Both the position numbers and the translations under genes were made by a program. The notes beneath the pieces are model-generated. The model was not told the DNA's origin and did no database searches. It saw nothing but the letters and a program-made list of their open reading frames with translations. DNA of 19,177 nt from a virus (lineage: Duplodnaviria > Heunggongvirae > Uroviricota > Caudoviricetes): IMG/VR virus record IMGVR_UViG_638341196_000003. One strand, 5' to 3'. Below are positions 475-17,815 of this stretch, piece by piece; within the stretch, counting starts at the first letter, position 1; every line of letters starts with the position of its first letter.

Positions 475-1002
475 ATGCAGCATTTAAAAAATATTACGGC
501 GGGTAATCCAAAAACGGTTGAACAATATCAATTGACAAAGGACTTTGATGTTGTCTGGTTTTTTTCAGAAGATGGTAAGAACTGGTACGAAGAACAAAAG
601 TATTTTGCTGATGACACGATAAAAATAGCGTACGACAAAGATAATATCATCCACTATGTGGAAAAGGATGTGACAGCTATCAGACCGGATGGATTAAGTG
701 TTGTTGAAGTGGCGGATATTACTGCTAACCGACGGGCGGACATTTCAGGGAACTGGATGTTTAAGGACGGCAAAGTGATTAAACGCGTTTATACGGCAGA
801 GGAATTACAGCAGCAGGCAGAAATTCGGAAAGCCAGACTTCTTGCAGATGCTGAATCCGTGATTTTGCCGCTGGAGCGCGCGGTCAGACTGAACATGGCA
901 ACAGATGAGGAGCGTAGCCGACTGGAATCATGGGAACGCTACAGCGTTCTGGTCAGTCGTGTGGATCCTGCAAATCCTGAATGGCCGGAAATGCCGCAAT
1001 AA
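475..1002 (+). CDS. Tail fiber assembly protein (P2 gpG-like chaperone)
   Basis: 175-aa ORF directly after the fiber gene, same length as P2 gpG; C-terminal ...[12 protein letters not shown] resembles Tfa-type chaperones. Identity is from recall, not a search. Confidence 0.7.
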
Positions 1003-1042
1003 GTTGTATTAGCTTACATATCTATGGCACAGAGTAAAGCCT

Positions 1043-1087
1043 AATCTGATAGTCCGCTCTGTGCCAGGAGCAGACATTGCCAACGTT
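1043..1087. repeat. Copy 1 of a ~30-38 bp repeat family (core TGTGCCAGGAGC-R-GAC-R-TTGCCA), about 40 bp after the G stop
   Basis: Hand alignment: 1052-1087 matches 5062-5097 at about 30 of 38 positions (direct); 1043-1080 matches the reverse complement of 10722-10759 at 31 of 38. Confidence 0.5.
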
Positions 1088-1470
1088 ATGACCCTCGATT
1101 ACATCAAAGAGCCCTATAGCCGAAACCTGCACCATAGCCATCTCTGTAGAATTCGTCCTAGGGGCTTTTAACAGACCTAGTTGTATGGATCGGAAGGAAA
1201 TATTAAAGCTCAAGGCGTCAGTCCAGTGCTGTCCTGTTTGCTTACCACACGAAAGAGTGCTGCTTGTACCTGCTAACTAATGGTATGCGGAGTGAGGGGG
1301 GCGGGTAGAACCAAAAGCACTTACTACGTGTGGCGCTCTCCTGGAAGAGGAGACGTCGAAGTGATAACGCTAACAACAGTCTTACTGGTGATGCAAATAA
1401 TGCTAGCTGGTCTGGTTGCCATCAAGCAACTGACCGGACGCCCGTAAGGGATGGAGGAACTTGATTAAAG

Positions 1471-1492
1471 GCAGGGGGGTTACCTCCCCTGC
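1471..1492 (+). terminator. Stem-loop of an intrinsic terminator split by IS2; its U-tract continues at 2829-2840
   Basis: GCAGGGG(G)...CCCCTGC stem ends exactly at the IS2 left junction. Removing IS2 and one copy of the CCTGC duplication gives GCAGGGGGGTTACCTCCCCTGC followed by CTTTTTTCGTTT. Confidence 0.5.
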
Positions 1493-1583
1493 TAGACTGG
1501 CCCCCTGAATCTCCAGACAACCAGTATCACTTAAATAAGTGATAGTCTTAATACTAGTTTTTAGACTAGTCATTGGAGTACAG

Positions 1584-1949
1584 ATGATTGATGTCTTAGG
1601 GCCGGAGAAACGCAGACGGCGTACCACACAGGAAAAGATCGCAATTGTTCAGCAGAGCTTTGAACCGGGGATGACGGTCTCCCTCGTTGCCCGGCAACAT
1701 GGTGTAGCAGCCAGCCAGTTATTTCTCTGGCGTAAGCAATACCAGGAAGGAAGTCTTACTGCTGTGGCCGCCGGAGAACAGGTTGTTCCTGCCTCTGAAC
1801 TTGCTGCCGCCATGAAGCAGATTAAAGAACTCCAGCGCCTGCTCGGCAAGAAAACGATGGAAAATGAACTCCTCAAAGAAGCCGTTGAATATGGACGGGC
1901 AAAAAAGTGGATAGCGCACGCGCCCTTATTGCCCGGGGATGGGGAGTAA
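1584..1949 (+). CDS. insC: IS2 transposase OrfA (InsC)
   Basis: 121-aa product [26 protein letters not shown]... with helix-turn-helix; ATG is the 16th codon of the listed ORF 1539-1949. Confidence 0.9.
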
Positions 1950-2812
1950 GCTTAGTCAGCCGTTGTCTCCGGGTGTCGCGTGCGCAGTTGCACGTCATTC
2001 TCAGACGAACCGATGACTGGATGGATGGCCGCCGCAGTCGTCACACTGATGATACGGATGTGCTTCTCCGTATACACCATGTTATCGGAGAGCTGCCCAC
2101 GTATGGTTATCGTCGGGTATGGGCGCTGCTTCGCAGACAGGCAGAACTTGATGGTATGCCTGCGATCAATGCCAAACGTGTTTACCGGATCATGCGCCAG
2201 AATGCGCTGTTGCTTGAGCGAAAACCTGCTGTACCGCCATCGAAACGGGCACATACAGGCAGAGTGGCCGTGAAAGAAAGCAATCAGCGATGGTGCTCTG
2301 ACGGGTTCGAGTTCTGCTGTGATAACGGAGAGAGACTGCGTGTCACGTTCGCGCTGGACTGCTGTGATCGTGAGGCACTGCACTGGGCGGTGACTACCGG
2401 CGGCTTCAACAGTGAAACAGTACAGGACGTCATGCTGGGAGCGGTGGAACGCCGCTTCGGCAACGATCTTCCGTCGTCTCCAGTGGAGTGGCTGACGGAT
2501 AATGGTTCATGCTACCGGGCTAATGAAACACGCCAGTTCGCCCGGATGTTGGGACTTGAACCGAAGAACACGGCGGTGCGGAGTCCGGAGAGTAACGGAA
2601 TAGCAGAGAGCTTCGTGAAAACGATAAAGCGTGACTACATCAGTATCATGCCCAAACCAGACGGGTTAACGGCAGCAAAGAACCTTGCAGAGGCGTTCGA
2701 GCATTATAACGAATGGCATCCGCATAGTGCGCTGGGTTATCGCTCGCCACGGGAATATCTGCGGCAGCGGGCTTGTAATGGGTTAAGTGATAACAGATGT
2801 CTGGAAATATAG
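1907..2812 (+). CDS. insD: IS2 transposase OrfB (InsD), DDE catalytic domain; normally made as an OrfAB fusion by -1 frameshifting
   Basis: 301-aa ORF overlapping orfA; A6G slippery run (GCAAAAAAGTGG) near 1896-1905; C-terminal [12 protein letters not shown] motif typical of the IS3 family. Confidence 0.9.
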
Positions 2813-2856
2813 GGGCAAATCCACCTGCCTTTTTTCGTTTCTGCGCAAGTTAGCTC

Positions 2857-2868
2857 TGTTATTATAAT
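2857..2868 (+). promoter_or_regulatory. Putative sigma70 -10 region (TGTTATTATAAT, extended -10 like) for the downstream 227-aa ORF
   Basis: TG-n-TATTAT / TATAAT hexamers 30-40 bp upstream of the ATG at 2899, immediately right of the IS2 end; no clear -35. Confidence 0.3.
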
Positions 2869-2898
2869 CCTTACTCACACTGTAAGGACATAGTTCAA

Positions 2899-3582
2899 AT
2901 GACTGAATGGCTTAATGCACATTTTGGTGCAGACGCAGCTACCTATCTTAGCTTATTAGTCGGCGTACTGGCACTGTTTGGTATTGGGGGCGGTGTTACA
3001 TATAGAATCAGACAGCAAAACAACATAAAACAGAAGGCAAAGAAAACCGAGGGTGATGTGAACCAGGCCGGGCGGGATATTAATCAGACCACCAACGTTT
3101 ACCACACATCCAATGAATCTACTGAGGACCCTGTAAAAAAAAAGCAAGATGAACATGATCTGAAGATAATCGACCAGATCCTTGAATTGCTGCCTTATGA
3201 GGATACTACTCAATGGGTTGAGCAGAGCTACCTGAGCGGTATACGGCAAGATGTTTGCTTAAACATTGAAAAAGCTGAAAAATTTAGCGGTGAAAAGTAT
3301 CGGTTATTCAATACTGAAGTGAATGGTGCGAAAGACGCTTTTTTGGACGCTATGACCGCATACGTAGATAGTACGCTACCATTTATGAGTGTTGATTACC
3401 CGAACAGAAAGCCAGTGATGCTAAGCCTTCCCCATGACTGGAAGAGTAAGAGTGTTGAATCGGAGGCAAACTTCCGCTTTCATCAGCAAAATGTGCGTGA
3501 AACATCGGGGGGGATGATTGCGCGCTATGAGGATTTTGTCAGGACATTTAAGGCTCATGGATTCATAAGCGATAAACTGTAA
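2899..3582 (+). CDS. Hypothetical membrane-anchored protein (227 aa): one N-terminal transmembrane helix, charged linker, soluble C-terminal domain; non-phage cargo
   Basis: Intact ORF with ATG start; hydrophobic segment YLSLLVGVLALFGIGGGV at residues ~16-33, then a Lys/Glu-rich linker. Own promoter-like region upstream and an intrinsic terminator downstream (rebuilt across the IS10-like insertion). No family recognised. Confidence 0.5.
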   Translation: MTEWLNAHFGADAATYLSLLVGVLALFGIGGGVTYRIRQQNNIKQKAKKTEGDVNQAGRDINQTTNVYHTSNESTEDPVKKKQDEHDLKIIDQILELLPYEDTTQWVEQSYLSGIRQDVCLNIEKAEKFSGEKYRLFNTEVNGAKDAFLDAMTAYVDSTLPFMSVDYPNRKPVMLSLPHDWKSKSVESEANFRFHQQNVRETSGGMIARYEDFVRTFKAHGFISDKL

Positions 3583-3675
3583 AGGCGCAGTGGGTCAGCG
3601 AACACCGCAACGACAGAACCGCGTAAGCGGTAAAATCAGCTTGTTAACTGGCGAGTTTATAGCCGTCCCTCCGGG

Positions 3676-4976
3676 CTGAGGGATCCCCACAAAATTACTG
3701 CTAATAAACCAGCACCATATTTCGGTAGGTTCTGGACAGATGGTTTAGAACTGTGCTCAGTACTGTTCGTCTTAAAATAAGTGGCGAGTGTCGAAGAACA
3801 TTCTTCGCTAACGTCAGATATGAGATAACCCGCCGGGATTTAATGCTGTTAGCCTGATATTTCAGGTGTAACCCTTTATTTTCAGCGTGATAACCGAGTA
3901 ACCACATTACGATAGTGCTCAACGTTGCCAGCAGACTCAGAACCAGAATTCTTCCTGTTGAACGACTTTTGCTGGCCCGAAGACCAAATCCGAAGCGCCC
4001 GTTCTTTTCATCACGAAAGTTTTGCTCTATCTGCATTCGCCGACTGTATAACTTGATGATTTCTCGCGCTCTGAAGTCATTTGTACTGCTGAAGATCAAC
4101 CAGGCTTCTTTTGCTGATTTGCTCTGTTCTTTGTCTGTTTTGTTTAAACCACTCTGACCTTTCGAACGTTTCTTTTTTCGCCCTTTTGCCGATTTCTTAT
4201 AGGTGTAAAAATGCCCCCGGATGCTTTTTTTCCTTTCTTTAACCAGCCTTCCAGCCTCCATATATTCCGGTGTTTTACATTCAGGGCTATCCGACACTTT
4301 TAACCATCTTTCAGGCGCGTTATCGAGGCAATACTGAACGTTATTTCTGATCCGACCAATAAAATCCCAGCCCAGAGAAGTAATATGGTGAAACCATGCG
4401 CTCTGAAATCCAGCATCCGTGACAATAATAACCCTGGCATCGGGGGGCAGGGATTGAGCAAGGGAATCAAGGAAATCATGTTGTATCAATGGATTATTTT
4501 GTTTTTCAGAAGGAACAACCTTACTCAATAACGGAATGGAACGCCCGTCACACAGAAGGCTGGCACGAAGAACATGATGCTCCTGGGAGGGATAGCCACT
4601 CCAGTCTACGGCTATTACACATAAAGATAACTGCCGTGTCAGCATTGAAGTGATATTCCTGAAAATCATTGGAATATCGCGATGGAGCGCCTCATTACCC
4701 ATGAGGCGATCAATACGTTTGCTCTTATTCTTAACTTGTGCATTACCCGGGAAAAAACGTCCGATACTGGTCAGCGTCAGAGATGCTCCGTTGATTAACG
4801 CCACTGTGGCATCCATCAGGGCATTTTGTCGGTACTGATGAAATGGTGCTAAGGCATCCCGGAAGAAATTCTGACATACTTTATGAACAGGCATAGCAGT
4901 GATCTCATTGAATTGTTGGCACAAATCAGTAGATCACATAATGCTATGTCTGTCTCGTTTTCTGGGAATTCCTCAG
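3676..4976 (-). mobile_element. IS4-family, IS10-like insertion sequence (1301 bp)
   Basis: Imperfect terminal inverted repeats CTGAGGGATCCCCACAAAATT (left) and CTGAGGAATTCCCAGAAAACG (right, reverse complement), 17 of 23 matching, resembling the IS10 end CTGATGAATCCCC. Perfect 9-bp duplication CCCTCCGGG at 3667-3675 and 4977-4985. Confidence 0.7.
3701..4924 (-). CDS. IS4-family (IS10 group-like) DDE transposase, 407 aa
   Basis: Shares landmarks with IS10 transposase as recalled (KRIDRLxGN, VDWS, RAS...GRS, DAGF, IYSxRMQIEQxFRD); stop 25 bp from the left inverted repeat. Confidence 0.85.
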   Translation of the reverse strand: MCQQFNEITAMPVHKVCQNFFRDALAPFHQYRQNALMDATVALINGASLTLTSIGRFFPGNAQVKNKSKRIDRLMGNEALHRDIPMIFRNITSMLTRQLSLCVIAVDWSGYPSQEHHVLRASLLCDGRSIPLLSKVVPSEKQNNPLIQHDFLDSLAQSLPPDARVIIVTDAGFQSAWFHHITSLGWDFIGRIRNNVQYCLDNAPERWLKVSDSPECKTPEYMEAGRLVKERKKSIRGHFYTYKKSAKGRKKKRSKGQSGLNKTDKEQSKSAKEAWLIFSSTNDFRAREIIKLYSRRMQIEQNFRDEKNGRFGFGLRASKSRSTGRILVLSLLATLSTIVMWLLGYHAENKGLHLKYQANSIKSRRVISYLTLAKNVLRHSPLILRRTVLSTVLNHLSRTYRNMVLVY

Positions 4977-5061
4977 CCCTCCGGGGCGGCTTTTTTATGA
5001 CTATAATCGACAGAATCACCTGAACGTCCAGGTGGGTTTCCCTGACAGGACGTCAAGGAAT

Positions 5062-5097
5062 GTTCGCTTTGTGCCAGGAGCGGACGTTGCCAGCATT
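5062..5097. repeat. Copy 2 of the repeat family, direct relative to copy 1, about 150 bp upstream of the 261-aa ORF
   Basis: Hand alignment to 1052-1087, about 30 of 38 identical, including an uninterrupted TGTGCCAGGAGC. Confidence 0.5.
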
Positions 5098-5246
5098 GAG
5101 TTTTCAGTTTTCAAAGGTATATCTTTAGATTTAGTTCACTTAGAATGAGCGTGTTAAAGTTTTCGGTTATGTGAGTATATTGAACATAACAAATAAACAA
5201 TAATTTTTGTATTCCATTTAGGATATAAAAAAGAGGGATTTGAGTT

Positions 5247-6032
5247 ATGTACGATTATAGTTTTTTACTTACTCCATCTACAGGATTTGTTAAAGGATTA
5301 TGTGGAGTTTGGTCGAATGATTTCTCTATAAATGATGATTCTGACTCTGATTTAGGGCAAACAGATATTCATTTACTTTCATCTCCTCATTTGAATATCA
5401 TATCCGACCCAAATGAATTGGCTTCCAAGTTAAAAGGTTTGTTGATGCTCATGAACGGCGCACTTAGCGTTCTTTATGGTTTTGAAAGATATCAATCTTT
5501 TGGTCCTCTTTCTATTTCTGGAAGTGAAGGCATTAATTACTCGGAAATATGCGGCTTTAAATCAATGGATGTAACTCAGGTAAACCCCTTTAATTTCCAT
5601 GACATACAGCAACCACACCCTCGCGCTGATAATTTTTCACGATTAATTAATTTATCATCTAAACATGAATCCTTACGTGTTGTTTTAGGTATGTGTGCCT
5701 TAGGTTATGATTGGGTTAATCTTTATCGTTTGTGGGAAACAATTAGAGAATATGTATATGATAAATATGTGAAAGGTATACTAAATTTCCCCGACGCTTA
5801 TAAAGGCAAGAAATATCAGAGAGATAAAGTAATTAGCATGGCTTTTAATATTGATGAAAAGGAAATCAGCAGATTCACGGGCACTGCTAATAGCTTTGAA
5901 CTGTTAGGGTATCTTGCGAGACATGGAAAGGGAAGTTCCGGAGGGATATTAAAAAATCCGATGTCAAGAGTTGACGCAAGCATTTTCGTACACAAAGCAA
6001 CTTACAAATATTGTAAGTTATTTTTGATGTAA
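5247..6032 (+). CDS. Hypothetical protein (261 aa), AT-rich non-phage cargo gene
   Basis: Intact ORF with ATG and an upstream AGAGGGA ribosome-binding site; the gene and its upstream region are visibly AT-rich compared with the flanking tail genes. No transmembrane segment or recognisable motif. Confidence 0.5.
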   Translation: MYDYSFLLTPSTGFVKGLCGVWSNDFSINDDSDSDLGQTDIHLLSSPHLNIISDPNELASKLKGLLMLMNGALSVLYGFERYQSFGPLSISGSEGINYSEICGFKSMDVTQVNPFNFHDIQQPHPRADNFSRLINLSSKHESLRVVLGMCALGYDWVNLYRLWETIREYVYDKYVKGILNFPDAYKGKKYQRDKVISMAFNIDEKEISRFTGTANSFELLGYLARHGKGSSGGILKNPMSRVDASIFVHKATYKYCKLFLM

Positions 6033-6124
6033 GTAAAAAGTTGAAGCTATAATACTCAAAGTATCGAAAACTACGTTCGTCGTGCACTCGAAAACAATAT
6101 GCTTATTGTGTCTGCACTAATTAC

Positions 6125-6161
6125 TCAAGGTCCGAGAAAAATGGCGAAGCTCATCTTTTTC
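6125..6161 (-). terminator. Intrinsic terminator serving the minus-strand HNH-like gene (hairpin GGCGAAGC/GCTTCGCC followed on the minus strand by AUUUUUCUC)
   Basis: Perfect 8-bp inverted repeat at 6133-6140 and 6154-6161, about 33 nt past the stop at 6194-6196; lies between two convergent cargo genes. Confidence 0.45.
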
Positions 6162-6193
6162 AGGCTTCGCCAACTTGAGTTATTGGTTAAAAT

Positions 6194-6372
6194 TCATTTA
6201 GGAATAATAGAATGCAATTCGTGACTCACCTGGATTTCATAGTGTTTCAATAGTTCTCCGATGTTAATTCCTACTACCTTACGAACTGCGCCGAGGGAGA
6301 AGTTAAGCTCCTCAATGCCCGGCCGATCTGGCGTTGAATTCATATAGTGTCGGCACGCACGGACAATTGACT
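6194..6372 (-). pseudogene. 3' segment (last 58 codons plus stop) of the HNH-like cargo gene interrupted by the IS911-like element
   Basis: Minus-strand frame at 6370 continues in phase the frame ending at 8845 once the IS and one copy of the ACT duplication are removed. The N-terminal residues of listed ORF 6194-6451 lie inside the IS end and are an artefact. Confidence 0.6.
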
Positions 6373-6380
6373 TGAAGTGG

Positions 6381-8509
<2,129 letters not shown>

Positions 8510-8510
8510 G

Positions 8511-8772
8511 TAGCCTTTTTTAATATTTCATTCTCCATTTCAATGCGTTGTAGCTTTTTCCTCAGCTTACGTATTTCGATTTGTTCTGGTGTTATCGGAG
8601 AGGCTTTTGGTGTTTTGCCCTGACGCTCATCACGCAGTTGTTTGACCCATCTTGTCATTGTGGAAAGGCCAACATCCATAGCTTTGGCGGCATCTGCCAC
8701 CGTGTATTTCTGGTCAACAACCAGTTGAGCGGATTCGCGTTTAAACTCTGCGCTAAAATTTCTTTTTTTCAT
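8511..8772 (-). pseudogene. IS911-like orfA, 5' portion (codons 1-88) cut by IS30; the last 12 codons and stop resume at 7288-7247
   Basis: [56 protein letters not shown]...EILKKAT, then IS30; downstream of IS30 the frame reads [12 protein letters not shown]-stop. Confidence 0.8.
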
Positions 8773-8844
8773 TGGAGCACCTGTGTTGTTCTGAGGCGAG
8801 CATATCACCTCTGTTCAGGTGGCCAAATTCAGTGTGCCACTTCA

Positions 8845-9421
8845 ACTCGACGATCAACGATAGCGGAGACTCAGGTGCAATCTCGGAGCGAATCGCCGTA
8901 AGAGAGAGTCGGAGCTCCTTCAAAGAATCCGAGACTCGTGCTGGATCCTCTTGAGCATATGGCAGATAAAGAGAACTCTTGTCTTCCAATAAATGGATCA
9001 ACCGCAGAGCAATTTTCTCGTCTGGGCGATGCGATAGAAATTGAAACATTAGCCTCTTTCCTCCCTCCAAGCACTCCTTCATTAGTGATTCGTGGTTACG
9101 TTTCCATTTTCGCAAATACTCGGCGGGGTAGCCCATACCGCCATTCTTATCAACTAAATCAGCACAAGCTCCGCACAACCATATAGCATTTTTTATGCTC
9201 TTCCGCTCTGTTTCTGACTGAGACATGTCATAGCGCGGTCCGCCAGGGCTCGCCGCGCAGATATGCGCCGCCTCACCCGTCTTGATAGAAAGATTTTCCG
9301 CCAATTGATCCGGGCCGATTGTTACCCTATGACAAGAGGGATTGCTACAAATATATGTAGCGCGCTCTGCTACCTTACCTACAACGCTTGGAGGAAAGTT
9401 GTGCCTATTTGTCTTGGTCAT
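8845..9421 (-). pseudogene. 5' segment (codons 1-192) of the HNH-like cargo gene interrupted by the IS911-like element
   Basis: ATG at 9421; product carries CSNPSCH...GEAAHICAASPGG...NAIWLCGACADLVD, an HNH-type Cys/His/Asn signature with non-canonical substitutions. The tail of listed ORF 8753-9421 beyond 8845 is read-through into the IS. Confidence 0.6.
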
Positions 9422-9492
9422 AAAAGTTATGCTTCTTTGTTTTTTTCATCTATGTGGGGAGAATAAAATCATACTTTTTATATCTGATCCTA

Positions 9493-10645
9493 AATAGCTG
9501 CGCTTAATACCGCTACACTTTTGCCAGTCCATGTTTGCCTCCGGGGAATGGGCTGACGGTTTCCATAAAATGGCGAACTTTTTTCAACAGTTGCCACATT
9601 GAGCGGCACTGATGATTACGCGTTATTGTGTCGTGAAGTGCCTGCCATAGCCGTTCAACATGATTCACCCATGGCGAGTAAACCGGCTGATAAATGACCC
9701 TGAACTTCGGGTTCTCCTTCAGCCAGCTCTGTGTTTCCCGGCTTTTGTGGATAATGTAGTTGTCCACGATCAGCGTGATGGTTTTCGCCCGACGGTATGT
9801 CGCTTTAAGCCGCTTCAGCAGGCTGATGAACAGCGCCGAACTTTTGCTGTTGCCGCCCACATAGCTGACTTTACCTGTCCCGCTGTGCAGCGCTCCGGCC
9901 AGATAATATTTTTCATTCTGTCCCGGCGTGACCACCCGTTTTTGCTGTCCGCGCAGTTGCCAGTCCGCACCGATTTTGGGATGAAGATGGATATCCACTT
10001 CATCTTCATAAAAGACCGGATGCTCTGCGCTGCATTCGTCCAGTGCTTTATGGATTGCTGCCATCTTTTCATCTTTATGCGGGTCACGGATACGCAGAGT
10101 TGGCGCAGCCCTTCGCCACACAATCCCCGCAGACGGCAACCAGCGGCGAACGGTTCCGGCATTTAACTGGCAACCGGTTATCTCATTGATTTTTATTGCC
10201 AGCAGTTCTGTACTCCAGCGTGAACGCTGGTAGACAAAGTCGCCGGGAGAATGTTTTACCAGCTCACGTAACAGTGTGCAGATATGCTCAAACGGCCAGC
10301 GACGGGCACGCCCGGCAGGTAATGATTTCAGTCCCTCAACACCCGACTGCGTGAACCAGTTAATCCAGCGTCCAACAGAGGAACGGGCGCAGCAGAGCGT
10401 TCTGGCAACGTCGCTGACACGGTCGCCCCGGTGCAGCATCAGCATGGCAGTCAGTCTGCGGGCATAATTTTTATCGTGTGTTTTATGGATGGCTTTCTGC
10501 ATCAGGCGTCGTTCGTCACGGGAAATTGGTGCTATGATCGGCATTGCTCAGTCCGGTTGGTGATTTGTTTTGATTTGGCGATTGATCAGATCGCACAATC
10601 CGGGCTAAGTTCCCTCAAAATGATCTACTATTCCGCGCAGCTATT
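9493..10645 (-). mobile_element. IS630 insertion sequence, complete (1153 bp)
   Basis: 343-aa transposase; imperfect terminal inverted repeats (AATAGCTGCGC...); flanking TA duplication at 9491-9492 and 10646-10647; reconstructed target GATCCTAGGTCTG contains CTAG. Confidence 0.9.
9513..10544 (-). CDS. IS630 (Tc1/mariner superfamily) transposase
   Basis: 343-aa product MPIIAPISRDERRLMQKAIHKTHDKNYARRL... matches IS630 transposase from recall. Confidence 0.9.
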   Translation of the reverse strand: MPIIAPISRDERRLMQKAIHKTHDKNYARRLTAMLMLHRGDRVSDVARTLCCARSSVGRWINWFTQSGVEGLKSLPAGRARRWPFEHICTLLRELVKHSPGDFVYQRSRWSTELLAIKINEITGCQLNAGTVRRWLPSAGIVWRRAAPTLRIRDPHKDEKMAAIHKALDECSAEHPVFYEDEVDIHLHPKIGADWQLRGQQKRVVTPGQNEKYYLAGALHSGTGKVSYVGGNSKSSALFISLLKRLKATYRRAKTITLIVDNYIIHKSRETQSWLKENPKFRVIYQPVYSPWVNHVERLWQALHDTITRNHQCRSMWQLLKKVRHFMETVSPFPGGKHGLAKV

Positions 10646-10721
10646 TAGGTCTGACCAGCAACCTATTGATCAAAAAACCAAGATATTAGCTAAAAAAAAT
10701 CAGCATACTTGAGACCAAGCT

Positions 10722-10759
10722 CAATGTCCGCTCCTCGCTCAAAGCAGACTGTCAGATTT
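10722..10759. repeat. Copy 3 of the repeat family, inverted relative to copy 1, about 180 bp upstream of FI
   Basis: 10722-10759 matches the reverse complement of 1043-1080 at 31 of 38 positions by hand alignment. Confidence 0.5.
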
Positions 10760-10819
10760 GATAGCATTTGGGCTATGTAAATTGTCAGGCGGAAAATGAG
10801 TGAGTACAAATCAGGACAG

Positions 10820-10849
10820 GCGGGCGAATTGCCCGCATTTTCTTTATCT
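10820..10849 (+). terminator. Terminator-like hairpin (GCGGGC-GAATT-GCCCGC followed by ATTTTCTTTATCT) upstream of FI
   Basis: Perfect 6-bp GC stem with 5-nt loop and a T-rich tail on the + strand; could insulate the FI late operon from the cargo island. Confidence 0.35.
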
Positions 10850-10941
10850 GTTGTTTCATCCCCTGACCAGCCAGGTCAAATAGCGTCTCATGCTCTGCAC
10901 AACAGAAAATAGTTGCACCCATTAACCACGGAGTTAAACGG

Positions 10942-12132
10942 ATGAGTGACTATCATCACGGCGTGCAGGTGCTGGAGATTAACGACGGCACCCGCGTCAT
11001 TTCCACCGTATCCACGGCCATTGTCGGCATGGTCTGCACGGCCAGCGATGCAGATGCGGAAACCTTCCCCCTCAATAAACCGGTGCTGATTACCAATGTG
11101 CAGAGCGCAATTGCAAAGGCCGGTAAAAAAGGCACGCTGGCGGCGTCGTTACAGGCCATCGCTGACCAGTCAAAACCGGTCACCGTTGTTGTGCGCGTGG
11201 AAGACGGCACCGGCGACGACGAAGAAACGAAGCTCGCGCAGACCGTTTCCAATATCATCGGCACCACCGACGAAAACGGTCAGTACACCGGACTGAAAGC
11301 CCTGCTGGCGGCGGAGTCGGTAACCGGTGTTAAACCGCGCATTCTCGGTGTGCCGGGACTGGATACCAAAGAGGTGGCTGTTGCACTGGCATCAGTCTGT
11401 CAGAAGCTGCGCGCTTTCGGGTATATCAGCGCATGGGGCTGTAAAACCATTTCCGAGGTGAAAGCCTACCGCCAGAATTTCAGCCAGCGTGAGCTGATGG
11501 TCATCTGGCCGGATTTCCTCGCATGGGATACGGTCACCAGTACCACCTCCACCGCGTATGCCACCGCCCGTGCGCTGGGGCTGCGCGCTAAAATCGACCA
11601 GGAGCAGGGCTGGCATAAAACGCTGTCCAACGTCGGGGTGAACGGTGTTACCGGCATCAGCGCGTCCGTATTCTGGGATTTGCAGGAGTCCGGCACCGAT
11701 GCTGACCTGCTTAACGAGTCAGGCGTCACAACGCTGATTCGCCGTGACGGTTTCCGCTTCTGGGGTAACCGTACCTGCTCTGATGACCCGCTGTTCCTCT
11801 TTGAAAACTACACCCGCACCGCGCAGGTGCTGGCCGACACGATGGCTGAGGCGCACATGTGGGCGGTGGACAAGCCCATCACCGCAACGCTGATTCGCGA
11901 CATCGTTGACGGCATCAATGCCAAATTCCGTGAGCTGAAAACAAACGGCTATATCGTGGATGCGACCTGCTGGTTCAGCGAAGAATCCAACGATGCGGAA
12001 ACCCTCAAGGCCGGAAAACTGTATATCGACTACGACTATACACCGGTGCCTCCTCTCGAAAACCTGACCCTGCGCCAGCGTATTACCGATAAATACCAGG
12101 CAAATCTGGTCACCTCGGTTAACAGCAATTAA
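10942..12132 (+). CDS. FI: Contractile tail sheath protein (P2 gpFI-like)
   Basis: 396-aa ORF, same length as P2 FI; position and order match the P2 FI-FII-E-T-U-D cluster. Confidence 0.9.
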   Translation: MSDYHHGVQVLEINDGTRVISTVSTAIVGMVCTASDADAETFPLNKPVLITNVQSAIAKAGKKGTLAASLQAIADQSKPVTVVVRVEDGTGDDEETKLAQTVSNIIGTTDENGQYTGLKALLAAESVTGVKPRILGVPGLDTKEVAVALASVCQKLRAFGYISAWGCKTISEVKAYRQNFSQRELMVIWPDFLAWDTVTSTTSTAYATARALGLRAKIDQEQGWHKTLSNVGVNGVTGISASVFWDLQESGTDADLLNESGVTTLIRRDGFRFWGNRTCSDDPLFLFENYTRTAQVLADTMAEAHMWAVDKPITATLIRDIVDGINAKFRELKTNGYIVDATCWFSEESNDAETLKAGKLYIDYDYTPVPPLENLTLRQRITDKYQANLVTSVNSN

Positions 12133-12144
12133 GGAGCCTGACCG

Positions 12145-12662
12145 ATGGCAATGCCGCGCAAACTCAAGTTAATGAACGTCTTTCTGAACGGCTACAGCTA
12201 TCAGGGCGTTGCAAAGTCCGTCACGCTGCCAAAACTGACCCGTAAACTCGAAAACTATCGCGGTGCGGGGATGAACGGAAGCGCACCGGTAGACCTCGGC
12301 CTTGATGACGATGCGCTGTCAATGGAGTGGTCGCTCGGGGCTTCCCGGATTCGGTTATCTGGGAGCTCTACGCCGCAACCGGCGTGGATGCCGTACCGAT
12401 TCGTTTTGCTGGCTCTTACCAGCGCGACGATACCGGCGAAACGGTGGCCGTCGAGGTGGTCATGCGTGGCCGTCAGAAAGAAATCGACACCGGCGAGGGG
12501 AAACAGGGAGAAGACACCGAGTCGAAAATCTCCGTGGTCTGCACCTATTTCCGGCTGACGATGGACGGTAAGGAGCTGGTCGAAATCGACACCATCAACA
12601 TGATTGAGAAGGTGAACGGTGTCGACCGGCTGGAGCAACACCGCCGCAATATCGGCCTGTGA
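12145..12662 (+). pseudogene. FII: Tail tube protein (P2 gpFII-like), frame disrupted near 12337-12340
   Basis: N-terminal 62 codons in frame 1 (…LSMEWSLG), remainder in the overlapping frame (GFPDSVIWELYAAT…) of listed ORFs 12145-12558 and 12327-12662. The break sits in a G4 run where one more G would restore a ~172-aa protein. Confidence 0.6.
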
Positions 12663-12994: not shown

Positions 12995-13146
12995 CGTTCC
13001 CGAAAAATCTGTCGGTCGATGAGCTGATGGCGGATGTGGCAGTGATATTTCACTGGCCGCCATCAGAACTGTATCCCATGAGTCTGACCGAACTCATCAC
13101 ATGGCGCGAAAAGGCGCTCCGGCGAAGCGGAAACACGAATGAGTAA
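12719..13146 (+). CDS. Tail assembly chaperone frameshift product (P2 gpE+E'-like) made by programmed -1 frameshift
   Basis: From the T6G run at 12967-12973 the -1 frame stays open to a stop at 13144-13146 (…FFVAELGAVTFPKNLSVDELMADVAVIFHWPPSELYPMSLTELITWREKALRRSGNTNE), overlapping the tape measure start. Confidence 0.55.
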
Positions 13147-15586
13147 CAATGTAAAATTACAGGTATTGCTCAGGGCTGTTGACCAGGCATCCCGCCCGTT
13201 TAAATCCATCCGCACAGCGAGCAAGTCGCTGTCGGGGGATATCCGGGAAACACAAAAATCACTGCGCGAGCTGAACGGTCACGCATCCCGTATTGAGGGA
13301 TTTCGCAAGACCAGTGCACAGCTCGCCGTGACTGGTCATGCACTTGAAAAGGCACGGCAGGAGGCCGAAGCCCTTGCCACACAGTTTAAAAACACCGAAC
13401 GTCCCACCCGTGCTCAGGCGAAAGTGCTGGAATCCGCAAAGCGTGCGGCGGAGGACTTACAGGCGAAATATAACCGCCTGACGGATTCCGTTAAACGCCA
13501 GCAGCGGGAACTGGCCGCTGTGGGAATTAATACCCGCAATCTTGCACATGATGAGCAGGGACTGAAAAACCGTATCAGTGAAACCACCGCACAACTTAAC
13601 CGTCAGCGCGACGCGCTGGCGCGTGTCAGTGCGCAACAGGCAAAACTTAACGCAGTAAAACAGCGTTATCAGGCCGGAAAGGAACTGGCCGGAAATATGG
13701 CCTCAGTAGGCGCTGCCGGTGTGGGGATTGCGGCGGCGGGAACGATGGCCGGAGTTAAGTTGCTGATGCCCGGTTATGAGTTTGCGCAGAAAAACTCAGA
13801 ATTGCAGGCCGTGCTAGGAGTGGCAAAAGACTCCGCCGAAATGGCCGCGCTACGCAAGCAGGCGCGCCAGCTCGGTGACAATACCGCCGCCTCAGCGGAT
13901 GATGCGGCCGGTGCGCAGATTATCATTGCGAAAGCGGGTGGAGATGTTGATGCCATTCAGGCGGCAACGCCGGTCACGCTGAATATGGCGCTGGCGAACC
14001 GCCGCACGATGGAAGAAAACGCCGCCCTGCTGATGGGGATGAAATCCGCCTTTCAGCTTTCAAACGATAAGGTTGCTCATATCGGGGATGTTCTCTCCAT
14101 GACGATGAACAAAACCGCCGCCGATTTTGACGGCATGAGCGATGCGCTGACCTATGCCGCACCTGTGGCAAAAAATGCCGGTGTCAGCATTGAAGAAACC
14201 GCCGCAATGGTCGGGGCACTGCATGATGCAAAAATTACCGGTTCAATGGCGGGGACGGGAAGCCGTGCCGTGTTAAGCCGCCTGCAGGCACCGACGGGAA
14301 AAGCATGGGATGCACTGAAAGAGCTTGGTGTGAAAACCTCAGACAGCAAGGGAAACACCCGGCCAGTATTTACCATTCTGAAAGAAATGCAGGCCAGTTT
14401 TGATAAAAACCGGCTCGGTACTGCCCAGCAGGCTGAATACATGAAAACCATTTTCGGGGAGGAGGCCAGCTCAGCCGCTGCTGTGCTGATGACTGCCGCC
14501 TCAACCGGAAGGCTGGACAAACTGACCGCTGCGTTTAAAGCCTCAGACGGGAAGACCGCGGAGCTGGTAAATATCATGCAGGACAACCTCGGCGGTGACT
14601 TTAAGGAGTTTCAGTCCGCTTATGAGGCGGTAGGGACTGACCTGTTTGACCAGCAGGAAGGCGCGCTGCGTAAGCTCACGCAGACGGCCACAAAGTATGT
14701 GTTAAAACTCGACGGCTGGATACAGAAAAACAAATCACTGGCGTCAACTATCGGCCTCATTGCCGGTGGCGCACTGGTGCTGACTGGCATCATCGGTGCC
14801 ATTGGTCTTGTAGCCTGGCCGGTTATCACCGGCATCAATGCCATTATCGCGGCAGCAGGCGCAATGGGGGCAATCTTCACGACGGTTGGCAGTGCTGTTA
14901 TGACGGCCATCGGGGCGATTAGCTGGCCGGTTGTGGCCGTGGTGGCCGCCATTGTCGCCGGGGCGTTGCTTATCCGTAAATACTGGGAGCCTGTCAGCGT
15001 ATTCTTCGGCGGTGTGGTTGAAGGGCTGAAAGCGGCATTTGCGCCGGTGGGGGAACTGTTCACGCCACTTAAGCCGGTGTTTGACTGGCTGGGTGAAAAG
15101 TTACAGGCCGCGTGGCAGTGGTTTAAAAACCTGATTGCACCGGTCAAAGCCACCCAGGACACCCTGAACCGTTGCCGTGACACGGGCGTCATGTTCGGGC
15201 AGGCACTGGCTGACGCGCTGATGCTGCCGCTTAATGCGTTCAACAAACTGCGCAGCGGTATTGACTGGGTACTGGAAAAACTCGGCGTCATCAACAAAGA
15301 GTCAGACACACTTGACCAGACCGCCGCCAGAACTCATGCCGCCACGTATGGCACCGGTGGTTATATTCCGGCGACCAGCTCTTATGCAGGCTATCAGGCT
15401 TATCAGCCGGTCACGGCACCGGCTGGCCGCTCTTATGTGGACCAGAGTAAAAACGAATATCACATCAGCCTGACCGGTGGTACTGCGCCGGGGACACAGC
15501 TTGACCGCCAGTTACAGGATGCGCTCGAAAAATACGAGCGGGATAAACGAGCGCGCGCCCGTGCCAGCATGATGCATGACGGTTAA
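13139..15586 (+). CDS. T: Tail tape measure protein (P2 gpT-like)
   Basis: 815-aa ORF, Ala/Gly-rich with predicted coiled-coil and hydrophobic segments; same length and position as P2 T. Confidence 0.9.
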   Translation: MSNNVKLQVLLRAVDQASRPFKSIRTASKSLSGDIRETQKSLRELNGHASRIEGFRKTSAQLAVTGHALEKARQEAEALATQFKNTERPTRAQAKVLESAKRAAEDLQAKYNRLTDSVKRQQRELAAVGINTRNLAHDEQGLKNRISETTAQLNRQRDALARVSAQQAKLNAVKQRYQAGKELAGNMASVGAAGVGIAAAGTMAGVKLLMPGYEFAQKNSELQAVLGVAKDSAEMAALRKQARQLGDNTAASADDAAGAQIIIAKAGGDVDAIQAATPVTLNMALANRRTMEENAALLMGMKSAFQLSNDKVAHIGDVLSMTMNKTAADFDGMSDALTYAAPVAKNAGVSIEETAAMVGALHDAKITGSMAGTGSRAVLSRLQAPTGKAWDALKELGVKTSDSKGNTRPVFTILKEMQASFDKNRLGTAQQAEYMKTIFGEEASSAAAVLMTAASTGRLDKLTAAFKASDGKTAELVNIMQDNLGGDFKEFQSAYEAVGTDLFDQQEGALRKLTQTATKYVLKLDGWIQKNKSLASTIGLIAGGALVLTGIIGAIGLVAWPVITGINAIIAAAGAMGAIFTTVGSAVMTAIGAISWPVVAVVAAIVAGALLIRKYWEPVSVFFGGVVEGLKAAFAPVGELFTPLKPVFDWLGEKLQAAWQWFKNLIAPVKATQDTLNRCRDTGVMFGQALADALMLPLNAFNKLRSGIDWVLEKLGVINKESDTLDQTAARTHAATYGTGGYIPATSSYAGYQAYQPVTAPAGRSYVDQSKNEYHISLTGGTAPGTQLDRQLQDALEKYERDKRARARASMMHDG

Positions 15587-15600
15587 GGAGGTGACGAAAA

Positions 15601-16080
15601 ATGATGCTCGCGTTAGGTATGTTTGTTTTTATGCGCCAGACGCTGCCACATCAGACCATGCAGCGTGAATCAGATTATCGCTGGCCGTCAAATTCCCGTA
15701 TCGGTAAACGGGATGCCTATCAGTTTCTCGGTGTAGGTGAGGAGAACATCACACTTGCCGGTGTGCTTTATCCCGAACTGACTGGCGGAAAGCTGACGAT
15801 GACCACGCTCAGACTGATGGCAGAGGAAGGCCGGGCGTGGCCGTTGCTGGATGGCACCGGCATGATTTACGACATGTATGTCATCAGCAAGGTGAGTGAA
15901 ACAGGGAGTATTTTCTTTGCAGACGGCACACCCCGGAAAATTGATTTTACGCTGTCGCTCACCCGCGTTGATGAGTCACTGGCCGCGCTTTATGGCGATA
16001 TCGGTAAACAGGCGGAATCGCTCATCGGTAAGGCTGGCAGTATGGCGACTAAATTCACGGGTATGACGGGGGCGGGATAA
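15601..16080 (+). CDS. U: Tail protein (P2 gpU-like)
   Basis: 159-aa ORF after T; stop overlaps the next start (TAATG) as in P2 U-D. Confidence 0.8.
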   Translation: MMLALGMFVFMRQTLPHQTMQRESDYRWPSNSRIGKRDAYQFLGVGEENITLAGVLYPELTGGKLTMTTLRLMAEEGRAWPLLDGTGMIYDMYVISKVSETGSIFFADGTPRKIDFTLSLTRVDESLAALYGDIGKQAESLIGKAGSMATKFTGMTGAG

Positions 16081-17243
16081 TGCTGGATGCGCTGACATTT
16101 GATGCAGGCAGTACGCTGACGCCGGATTACATGCTGATGCTCGACAGCAGGGATATTACCGGCAATATCAGCGACCGTCTGATGAGCATGACCCTGACGG
16201 ATAACCGGGGCTTTGAGGCTGACCAGCTTGATATTGAACTGAACGATGCCGACGGGCAGGTCGGGCTGCCGGTTCGTGGCGCTGTCCTGACGGTGTATAT
16301 CGGCTGGAAAGGTTTTGCCCTGGTATGCAAAGGGAAATTTACCGTTGATGAGGTTGAACACCGGGGCGCACCGGATGTGGTCACCATCCGCGCCCGGAGT
16401 GCAGATTTTCGCGGGACGCTCAATTCCCGCCGGGAAGGCTCATGGCATGACACCACGCTCGGTGCGATTGTTGAGGCGATAGCCTCCCGGAACAGGCTGG
16501 AAGCCAGTGTCGCTCCGTCACTGGCCGGAATTAAAATTCCGCACATCGACCAGTCGCAGGAGTCTGATGCGAAATTCCTGACCCGCCTTGCTGAACGCAA
16601 CGGCGGTGAGGTGTCGGTAAAAATGGGAAAACTGCTGTTTCTCAAAGCGGGGCAGGGGGTGACGGCCAGCGGTAAAAAAATCCCGCAGATTACCATCACC
16701 CGCAGCGACGGCGACCGTCATCATTTTGCGATTGCTGACCGTGGAGCCTACACCGGCGTAATGGCAAAGTGGTTACACACCAAAGACCCGAAGCCACAAA
16801 AGCAGAAGATAAAACTGAAACGCAAAAAGAAAGAGAAACACCTGCGCGCACCGGAGCACCCGAAAGCGAAACCGGTCAGGCAGAAGAAAGCGCCTAAAGT
16901 ACCGGAAGCGCGCGAAGGTGAATACATGGCCGGTGAGGCTGATAACGTTTTTGCCCTGACTACGGTATATGCCACAAAAGCGCAGGCCATGCGCGCCGCT
17001 CAGGCGAAGTGGGATAAGCTGCAACGGGGCGTGGCGGAGTTCTCCATCAGTCTGGCTACTGGTCGGGCAGATATTTACACGGAAACGCCGGTCAAAGTGT
17101 CAGGTTTTAAGCGCGTCATAGACGAGCAGGACTGGACAATCACTAAGGTGACACACTTTCTGAATAATAGCGGCTTCACGACGTCCTTAGAGCTTGAGGT
17201 CAGGCTTTCTGATGTGGAGTACGAAACAGAAGGTGATGAGTAA
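16080..17243 (+). CDS. D: Tail protein D (P2 gpD-like)
   Basis: 387-aa ORF with a Lys-rich internal segment (KPQKQKIKLKRKKKEK), same length and position as P2 D. Confidence 0.85.
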   Translation: MLDALTFDAGSTLTPDYMLMLDSRDITGNISDRLMSMTLTDNRGFEADQLDIELNDADGQVGLPVRGAVLTVYIGWKGFALVCKGKFTVDEVEHRGAPDVVTIRARSADFRGTLNSRREGSWHDTTLGAIVEAIASRNRLEASVAPSLAGIKIPHIDQSQESDAKFLTRLAERNGGEVSVKMGKLLFLKAGQGVTASGKKIPQITITRSDGDRHHFAIADRGAYTGVMAKWLHTKDPKPQKQKIKLKRKKKEKHLRAPEHPKAKPVRQKKAPKVPEAREGEYMAGEADNVFALTTVYATKAQAMRAAQAKWDKLQRGVAEFSISLATGRADIYTETPVKVSGFKRVIDEQDWTITKVTHFLNNSGFTTSLELEVRLSDVEYETEGDE

Positions 17244-17324
17244 TGTTTTGTTTTTATCTGTTTGTTTTATAAGGGTAAATTAACTAAAATGGCACCATCA
17301 ACAAAACCGGAAGAGGTGCTCGCG

Positions 17325-17543
17325 ATGTTTCATTGTCCTTTATGCCAGCATGCCGCACATGCGCGTACAAGCCGCTATATCACTGACACGACAAAAGAGC
17401 GTTATCACCAGTGTCAGAACGTGAATTGCAGTGCCACGTTCATCACTTATGAGTCGGTACAGCGATACATCGTGAAGCCGGGAGAAGTCCACGCCGTAAG
17501 GCCGCACCCGTTGCCATCAGGGCAGCAAATTATGTGGATGTAA
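17325..17543 (+). CDS. ogr: Late-gene transcription activator Ogr (zinc-finger protein)
   Basis: 72-aa product MFHCPLCQHAAHARTSRYITDTTKERYHQCQNVNCSATF... with the Cys4 motif; begins at the third Met of listed ORF 17262-17543. Confidence 0.85.
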   Translation: MFHCPLCQHAAHARTSRYITDTTKERYHQCQNVNCSATFITYESVQRYIVKPGEVHAVRPHPLPSGQQIMWM

Positions 17544-17556
17544 TTACAAACAGAAA

Positions 17557-17582
17557 GCCCCTCAGTCGAGGGGCTTTTTTGT
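17557..17582 (+). terminator. Intrinsic terminator after ogr (GCCCCTC-AGTC-GAGGGGC followed by TTTTTTGT)
   Basis: Perfect 7-bp GC-rich stem, 4-nt loop, T6 tract 14 nt after the ogr stop. Confidence 0.6.
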
Positions 17583-17644
17583 CGATGTGGTCAATGTGTG
17601 GACGTGACCAGAAATAAATCCTTTTATTTCAATTTATTGTACGT

Positions 17645-17671
17645 AAAAAATAAGCCCGTGTAAGGGAGATT
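17645..17671. other. Probable prophage right attachment-site core (AAAAAATAAGCCCGTGTAAGGGAGATT) overlapping the cyaR 3' end
   Basis: The 27-nt string matches the P2 att core as I recall it and sits between the ogr terminator and the body of cyaR; recollection only, not verified. Confidence 0.45.
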
Positions 17672-17731
17672 ACACAGGCTAAGGAGGTGGTTCCTGGTAC
17701 AGCTAGCATTTTATGGGTTATGTTTTTCAGC
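17645..17731 (-). ncRNA. cyaR: CyaR (RyeE) Hfq-dependent small RNA
   Basis: Reverse complement reads GCUGAAAAACAUAACCCAUAAAAUGCUAGCUGUACCAGGAACCACCUCCUUAGCCUGUGUAAUCUCCCUUACACGGGCUUAUUUUUU, an 87-nt RNA with terminator hairpin and U-tract; lies between ogr and yegQ as in E. coli K-12. Confidence 0.85.
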
Positions 17732-17738
17732 GAAACGG

Positions 17739-17781
17739 ATGATAACCTTAATAAATGCAACTGTATGTGATCGGTTTCTAA
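17739..17781 (-). promoter_or_regulatory. cyaR promoter: -10 hexamer TATCAT (17739-17744) and a class II CRP half-site pair TGTGA-N6-TCTAA (17766-17781)
   Basis: -10 lies 8-13 nt upstream of the inferred 5' end at 17731; CRP-like site is centred about 42 nt upstream, consistent with known CRP dependence of cyaR. Confidence 0.5.
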
Positions 17782-17815
17782 GAATTTTCCATCCGGGAAA
17801 AATAATCGAAATTAA

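Follow-up and report, generated by a model that had tools for sequence, protein, structure and literature searches.

We analyzed a 19,177-nucleotide stretch of DNA from a Caudoviricetes virus record (IMG/VR IMGVR_UViG_638341196_000003), here called the window, and followed up an original prediction, made from the sequence alone, that positions 1003-10941 hold a cargo island of a P2-like prophage. With high probability, this 9939-bp island between the tail-fiber-assembly and sheath genes is the Z-region cargo slot of a Shigella P2-like prophage that carries 3 independent single-gene anti-phage modules, named here genes A, B, and C, and that was later invaded by 5 insertion sequences (ISs). The island is a new, IS-degraded instance of an already known kind of locus. 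Gene B is a published defense gene, the mechanism of which we still infer; gene C is split and, in this window, dead; and gene A is the sole truly uncharacterized gene of the island, with no relatives of known function. The 3 genes are laid out as follows.

2899-3582, plus strand: gene A, 227 amino acids (aa), intact, with a transmembrane helix at the N-terminus, joined by a disordered linker to a C-terminal helical bundle
5247-6032, plus strand: gene B, 261 aa, 35% GC, intact; DS-29 (working name HEP3)
8845-9421, minus strand: 5' part of gene C, with the HNH nuclease domain and the start of a probable DUF6650-type domain
6194-6372, minus strand: 3' part of gene C, codons ~192-250

The protein encoded by gene B was identical to WP_061089765.1 (DS-29) at 260 of 261 residues, the sole change being I246 for N246, and I is commoner than N at residue 246 within the gene B family. 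DS-29 is a single-gene system from an ECOR E. coli strain, discovered with DefensePredictor and marked defensive=TRUE and replicated in a 2026 study (PMC13092281). The HEP3 transcription unit spans the DS-29 coding sequence alone and was assayed with its native promoter region, carried by a low-copy plasmid in MG1655 (PMC13092281). Published titers fell from 2.2e9 with the empty vector to 1e3 for Bas60, from 2e8 to 2e3 for T4, from 5e7 to 1e4 for Candy, and from 2e5 to 1.1e4 for RB69, giving log drops of 1.3-6.3 over the 4 phages, all measured on the N246 protein; the mechanism of DS-29 was not established in that paper (PMC13092281). The source contig of DS-29 has the same neighbors as found here, with gene A upstream and gene C convergent downstream. 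The present copy differs from it in lying in the P2 Z slot of Shigella, in having an IS10-like element 270 bp upstream, and in carrying I246.

Gene B had no Pfam, PADLOC, NCBIfam, PHROG, or PDB sequence match, profile searches of genes A and B against PDB sequences returned nothing further, searches of sequenced phages for these 2 genes gave no match, and NCBIfam returned nothing useful for any of the 3 genes. A profile search over 1.84 billion representatives identified 1,183 gene B relatives at E<=1e-3, with most of the listed matches 230-280 aa long; no Pfam family was found in 10 distant relatives that were scanned. Only N215, R225, H226, and G227 were invariant among 38 aligned relatives, all within the motif FTGTANNF..LG..ARHG (N-x9-R-H-G). 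The model of the C-terminal helical domain suggests a HEPN-like fold; set against this, gene B lacks the canonical HEPN Rx4-6H motif, its R and H being adjacent, and the invariant residues fall in a loop with pLDDT below 50. Gene B most likely encodes an infection-triggered nuclease, with this putatively HEPN-like domain, that would abort T-even-type infections.

Joining 9421-8848 to 6372-6194 rebuilt a 250-aa gene C product with 2 substitutions relative to the intact E. coli copy. Its N-terminal ~120 residues form an HNH domain, matched by the PADLOC model PDC-M68A (E 6.6e-24) and by endonuclease and SAVED-HNH effector models of the cyclic-oligonucleotide-based anti-phage signaling system (CBASS). 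The PDC-M68A match is limited to profile positions 5-113 of 253, and we found no paper mentioning PDC-M68. The domain also matched PDB chain 9om4 (E 2e-11), with HNH/Cap5-type chains ranging from E 2e-11 to 7e-3. Residues C25, C30, H53, N78, C83, and C86 were invariant in 31 gene C homologues, and thus the HNH catalytic residues and 4 zinc-binding cysteines are in place. The family is large, with 401 clusters in several phyla, and one homologue is a lone opposite-strand moron between the Q and holin genes of an E. coli lambdoid prophage.

By sequence, the C-terminal domain of gene C probably belongs to DUF6650. Precomputed annotation places PF20355 (DUF6650) on 120 of the 120 gene C homologues listed, with the PF20355.5 matches unmarked (E<=1e-5), and RefSeq names one E. 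coli allele, WP_073840803.1, a DUF6650 family protein. Against this membership, the local PF20355.3 model did not match gene C and gave subthreshold matches to only 2 of 31 relatives, and hhalign of gene C with the single DS-27 sequence returned nothing. DUF6650 was newly implicated in defense via DS-27 (PMC13092281). Two known effectors resemble gene C in part. The HNH domain of Cap5, the CBASS SAVED-HNH effector, aligns with its N-terminus, the SAVED-HNH model matches covering residues ~5-120 only, and ThsG, the DUF6650 effector of type VI Thoeris, shares the C-terminal domain label by precomputed Pfam and RefSeq annotation. Unlike CBASS, gene C has no SAVED domain and no cyclase gene in the island or beside 2 sampled homologues, and unlike type VI Thoeris, it has no TIR gene in the island or beside the homologues at loci L028 and L031. 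Because neither a TIR nor a cyclase neighbor accompanies it here or at the 2 homologues examined, gene C is not a Thoeris or CBASS system but stands alone. By analogy with Cap5 and ThsG, it probably encodes an HNH DNase gated by a fused sensor or oligomerization domain of DUF6650 type.

Gene A is identical to WP_000141343.1 and has few relatives (16 clusters only, in Enterobacterales, Vibrio, and Pseudoalteromonas). At its N-terminus, a single hydrophobic helix precedes a strongly basic stretch, and the positive-inside rule predicts an N-out/C-in protein tethered to the inner membrane with its helical bundle in the cytoplasm. The disordered linker carries a QAGRDIN motif, of which one homologue has tandem repeats, and structure prediction gives a confident all-alpha bundle for residues 78-227. 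A match to the phage XM1 baseplate protein gp11 (E 4.5e-4 with the single sequence, 8.6e-5 with the profile) was rejected as kinship: gp11 has a tube-like beta-sandwich structure, a loop insertion of which is what the match covers (PMC10457771), whereas the gene A domain is all-alpha.

Homologues of gene A were identified in an apparent Vibrio superintegron array, so labeled from its gene content, among toxin-antitoxin pairs and a DUF2971 gene; after the tail-fiber genes of a lambdoid prophage; on a small plasmid-like Salmonella contig; and on Yersinia, Salmonella, and E. coli plasmids, 6 of 8 of which are predicted to be conjugative. This distribution over prophage morons, an integron cassette, and plasmids is that of a defense or exclusion gene, and such a role is what we would propose for it. 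Genes A, B, and C were all flagged as "predicted novel defense gene" in the ECOR strain, and the DefensePredictor log-odds of gene A (5.34) exceed the strict cut-off of 4; gene A is absent from the cloned units of that study (PMC13092281).

The island is bordered by 2 tail genes, preceded on the left by a tail-fiber gene.

1-471: terminal part of the tail-fiber gene
475-1002, plus strand: P2 G-like tail-fiber assembly gene, left border of the slot (Pfam Caudo_TAP, E 1.5e-33; same annotation in E. coli locus L002)
10942-12132, plus strand: P2 FI-like tail sheath gene, right border of the slot (Pfam Phage_sheath; sheath annotation in the near-identical E. coli locus L002)

The position between tail-fiber-assembly and sheath genes, together with inverted repeats on both sides that are annotated in GenBank AJ512680 ("P2-EC46 proviral Z-region"), identifies the interval as the P2 Z-region (Z/fun) slot. 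In a 2026 survey, 16% of P2 defense systems lay in a hotspot placed downstream of GpL and equated with the hotspot for accessory genes among the tail genes (PMC13586616). The insertion of an IS into gene C created a chimeric open reading frame (ORF), residue-for-residue matches to which occur only in assemblies named Shigella boydii or S. dysenteriae, and the source is therefore a Shigella genome. GC content is 35-36% over 5001-6250 and 53-59% in the tail genes.

The original prediction was accurate as an observation, and the evidence supports its reading of a defense-type cargo island at the P2 Z slot. The Pfam matches and the annotation of L002 confirm an interval of ~9.9 kb between an assembly gene ending at 1002 and a sheath gene starting at 10942, and the composition given above bears out the AT richness noted for the gene at 5247-6032 and its upstream region. 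That the Z/fun position is a cargo hotspot of P2-like prophages agrees with the AJ512680 repeats, with the survey, and with the differing cargo at the same or equivalent slots elsewhere. None of the 3 ORFs proved structural, as had been claimed, and all are of defense type. The expectation of an uncharacterized defense or accessory function held for the defense type and, as to uncharacterized, for gene A only, given that gene B is the published DS-29 and all 3 genes had already been flagged. Conserved non-prophage contexts had been named as evidence that would count against the idea; the genes do literally occur outside prophages, yet these contexts are variable cargo slots of mobile elements, beside type I restriction-modification and DarTG genes, and the idea stands.

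A megablast search of 5,426 complete E. coli genomes found IS-free copies of the island; only 15 of these genomes had >=80% of the cassette of genes A, B, and C. Three contexts were examined. The cassette again occupies the G-FI slot in a P2 remnant beside yegR (L002); it lies in a cargo slot beside YeeP-like GTPase and Ag43 genes in CP4-44-like islands; and it stands at the end of an e14-like lambdoid remnant at icd (L026). Among the CP4-44-like contexts, the cassette adjoins a type I restriction-modification system with an embedded DarTG in L001, and a PADLOC HEC-08 gene and a 200-aa tyrosine recombinase in L025. The 366-aa "hypothetical protein" by the cassette (L025 9529-10629, minus strand; L024 6453-7553, minus strand) is a full-length match to PADLOC HEC-08/DUF3644 (E 4e-174). 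Other cargo seen in comparable positions of other strains included a 442-aa HEPN protein (P2 G-FI slot), a GIY-YIG nuclease (island slot), and HEC-08. Near-identical P2 defenses have been found in other mobile elements and cryptic islands (PMC13586616), and the cassette contexts identified here agree with that conclusion on defenses common to other elements. DS-29, a validated defense gene, now has a natural setting on a mobile element, namely the cargo slot among the tail genes of a P2-like prophage, and travels as a module with 2 other candidates among at least 3 kinds of mobile element.

The Z-region of P2-EC46 (AJ512680) is among the closest comparisons, with the same tail-fiber-assembly/sheath slot, the same flanking inverted repeats, and 1 ORF with an HNH N-terminal domain 39% identical to that of gene C. 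Its cargo differs in consisting of a Lit-like peptidase U49 protein and a 368-aa HNH protein, and it has no ISs. The P2 old/tin and P4 hotspots likewise hold diverse defense genes replacing each other at a fixed position (PMC9122126). The old/tin hotspot lies between gpA and gpQ (PMC9122126), whereas the present slot lies within the tail genes and is a lesser hotspot in the P2 survey (PMC13586616).

The limits of the ISs were set from element ends, target-site duplications (TSDs), and transposase families, together with alignment to the IS-free copies L001 and L002. Five elements were delimited.

1493-2823, plus strand: IS2, 1331 bp, TSD CCTGC (NCBIfam IS2 TnpB, E 1e-219); 70 bp upstream of gene A, within a hairpin
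3676-4976, minus strand: IS10-like IS4-family element, 1301 bp, 9-bp TSD CCCTCCGGG (NCBIfam transpos_IS4_2, E 8e-107); within the terminator hairpin of gene A
6373-8844, minus strand: IS3-family element, TSD ACT (NCBIfam transpos_IS3, E 3e-90); splits gene C and hosts the nested IS30
7289-8509, minus strand: IS30, 1221 bp, terminal repeats located (NCBIfam transpos_IS30, E 2e-81); nested in orfA of the IS3-family element
9493-10645, minus strand: IS630, 1153 bp, TA duplication (NCBIfam transpos_IS630, E 7e-76); 71 bp upstream of the gene C start codon

The IS3-family element, which we take to be IS911-like from its ends and OrfA, is itself inactivated, since IS30 is nested in its orfA. Alignment to L001 and L002 yielded native segments at 1029-1492, 2820-3675, 4977-6372, 8845-9492, and 10646-10749, with 4 insertions between them. 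The 5 ISs amount to 6257 bp, with 19 bp of duplications, and leave ~3663 bp of native DNA, close to the earlier estimates of about 6.3 and 3.6 kb. The view that the 3 ORFs are independently organized was likewise upheld, with terminator-like hairpins before and after gene A and with genes B and C convergent, and the coordinates given for the split gene (9421-8845 and 6370-6194) were right save for an ambiguity from the 3-bp target duplication. Gene C, cut at codon ~192 by the IS3-family element and with IS630 upstream of its start, is dead in this window. Both hairpins hit by ISs are GC-rich and terminator-like, with IS2 in the one before gene A (1488-1492/2824-2828) and the IS10-like element in the one after it (3667-3675/4977-4985). 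A closely related Shigella with the same island (GCA_900618165.1, L019 17872-18903) has an extra IS630 copy between the tail-fiber assembly gene and IS2, and IS accumulation there is therefore ongoing.

Genes A, B, and C are adjacent and move as one 3.4-kb block, at 99.5-100% identity, among 3 kinds of mobile element in E. coli, as the parts of 1 multi-gene system needing all 3 would do. Yet no sampled homologue of A, B, or C outside Escherichia/Shigella had either other gene nearby, E. coli GPEC859 carries gene A but neither B nor C, and plasmid-borne B alone, as the HEP3 transcription unit, protects. Such a joint system is highly improbable for these reasons, and the genes are 3 independent modules; their separate terminators, differing GC content, and convergent orientation, and the copy of a palindrome described below that stands between A and B, also speak against a single system. 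A second alternative concerns function rather than organization: gene A, possibly with others, could be a lysogenic-conversion or host-interaction gene, encoding an envelope-altering membrane protein or a regulator tether. The 2004 GenBank entry AJ512680 labels Z-region ORFs as "putative lysogenic conversion proteins", and gene A combines a membrane anchor with a generic helical bundle like those of sensor domains and has no PADLOC match. We regard this as possible, if somewhat unlikely, for gene A recurs in toxin-antitoxin- and defense-rich cassette arrays, at moron positions, and on conjugative plasmids, its DefensePredictor score lies above the cut-off, and defense genes are the neighboring modules in every E. 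coli slot.

The reading of the island as 3 anti-phage modules also has to be weighed against its having lost all function in this genome; on that view it is decaying in an IS-laden Shigella chromosome, and those ORFs that look intact are no longer expressed. The density of ISs (5 in 9.9 kb, with a sixth in the related assembly), the split gene C, and the occupation by IS2 and the IS10-like element of the hairpins flanking gene A all point that way, as do a 1-bp deletion in the tube gene FII and the truncated tube ORFs of independent Shigella assemblies. Genes A and B, in contrast, are 100% and 99.6% identical to their E. coli versions and have no frameshift or stop, the sequence just upstream (70 bp for A, 270 bp for B) is undisturbed, and the IS2 transposase genes read toward gene A, which might allow read-through transcription. 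A wholly dead island thus appears unlikely. In this genome, the island mainly illustrates IS-driven erosion of prophage-borne immunity in Shigella.

The borders of the slot share a lox-like palindrome, GTCCGCTC-TGTGCCAG-GAGCGGAC, with 8-bp arms (~11 bp with flanking bases) around an 8-nt asymmetric spacer and the consensus GTCCGCTY-TGTGCCAR-GAGCRGAC. A pattern search found 3 copies in the window, with 0.01 expected.

1052-1075, plus strand: left copy, GTCCGCTC-TGTGCCAG-GAGCAGAC, core of the Z-region "left inverted repeat"
5062-5085, plus strand: internal copy, GTTCGCTT-TGTGCCAG-GAGCGGAC, between genes A and B
10726-10749, minus strand: right copy in inverted orientation, core of the Z-region "right inverted repeat"

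The inverted repeats of AJ512680 match window positions 975-1075 (83%) and 10729-10816 (93%). The window is homologous to the non-P2 copies from 1029 (L001) or 1069 (L026) onward and up to exactly 10749 (L001), and the L025 junction lies inside the right palindrome copy. The breakpoints of cargo exchange between the P2, CP4-44-like-island, and e14-like contexts thus fall in or within ~25 bp of the palindrome, copies of which also border alternative cargos. The palindrome copies delimit the modules, and cargo was probably exchanged there between P2 phages, CP4-44-like islands, and the e14-like prophage. The 2004 paper on the P2 Z-region by Nilsson, Karlsson and Haggard-Ljungquist reportedly proposed site-specific recombination at the repeats, to judge from its title and the GenBank annotation.

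A wide scan with one genome per species recovered at least 120 palindrome loci, those listed belonging to many Enterobacterales and also to Idiomarina, Alphaproteobacteria, and Nitrosomonadales. The left arm, which lay outside the search pattern, was present in 58 of 120 sites listed, with 0.9 expected, and a second, related hairpin was often found 20-50 bp upstream of the palindrome. The spacer, TGTGCCAG or TGTGCCAA, contains the R64 shufflon sfx core GTGCCAA or is one base off, the window having GTGCCAG and many other copies GTGCCAA. Like lox/FRT-type sites and R64 sfx, the palindrome has inverted arms around an asymmetric spacer, and exchange breakpoints occur at it; its arms and those of sfx are presumably unrelated. 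It differs from integron attC in lacking the R''/R' boxes (RYYYAAC ... GTTRRRY), and no IntI is encoded in the window; the sole link to integrons is a distant gene A homologue, the one in the apparent Vibrio array.

We considered whether every palindrome copy precedes a cargo gene and shares its orientation. This is true of the 3 window copies but fails at 122 sites elsewhere, where the palindrome lies more often after gene 3' ends (70 vs 40 upstream, 73 vs 35 downstream). In the wider sample, it often stands between convergent gene ends in housekeeping-looking DNA, a setting more like that of a repetitive extragenic palindromic (REP)-type element than of a shufflon site. No recombinase or integrase is encoded in the window, and none was consistently near the palindrome in the wide sample. 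A 200-aa tyrosine recombinase, WP_001305361.1 (Pfam Phage_integrase), adjoins a palindrome half-copy in the E. coli island slot at L024 7952-8554 and L025 11028-11630 and recurs near the palindrome at 91-95% identity in Leclercia, Pantoea, and Rahnella (L059, L067, L084).

The palindrome is a conserved element at which cargo exchange occurred, either through site-specific recombination or through recombination at a REP-like repeat. A bolder proposal takes it as the core site of an undescribed, widespread site-specific recombination system, a lox-like counterpart of attC, that would insert and swap single-gene defense modules among P2 phages, CP4-44-like islands, lambdoid prophage ends, and further loci across Proteobacteria, with gene A as a new, membrane-tethered type of defense; we hold this combination to be distinctly unlikely. 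If the palindrome were a true recombination site, it would explain the rapid swapping of defense genes at such hotspots.

The native leader segment (1029-1492, plus strand, 464 bp) ends in a strong terminator-like hairpin with a 13-bp stem, the one split by IS2. It contains an unannotated 55-aa ORF (1280-1447, plus strand) with a hydrophobic C-terminal half, which could be a small membrane peptide or a non-coding transcript. Neither the ORF nor the segment had a Pfam or Rfam match, and an Rfam search over the IS-free island gave sub-threshold chance hits only.

To the right of the sheath gene, the prophage continues to its chromosomal border.

12145-12662: tube gene FII
between the tube and tape measure genes: E/E' genes
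13139-15586: tape measure gene
between the tape measure gene and D: U gene
16080-17243: D gene
17262-17543: ogr
17816-19177: chromosomal trhP/yegQ (NCBIfam equivalog, E 4e-264)

The deletion in FII removes 1 bp from a G-run at ~12337 and causes a frameshift relative to the E. coli copy. Because truncated tube ORFs are likewise called in independent Shigella assemblies, the tail module of this prophage is probably defective. At the prophage end (17262-19177), ogr directly adjoins trhP (yegQ), whereas the P2 remnant of strain cM2a (L002) begins beside yegR; at the trhP/yegQ locus of E. coli K-12, the P2 remnant is presumably reduced to ogrK/yegZ.

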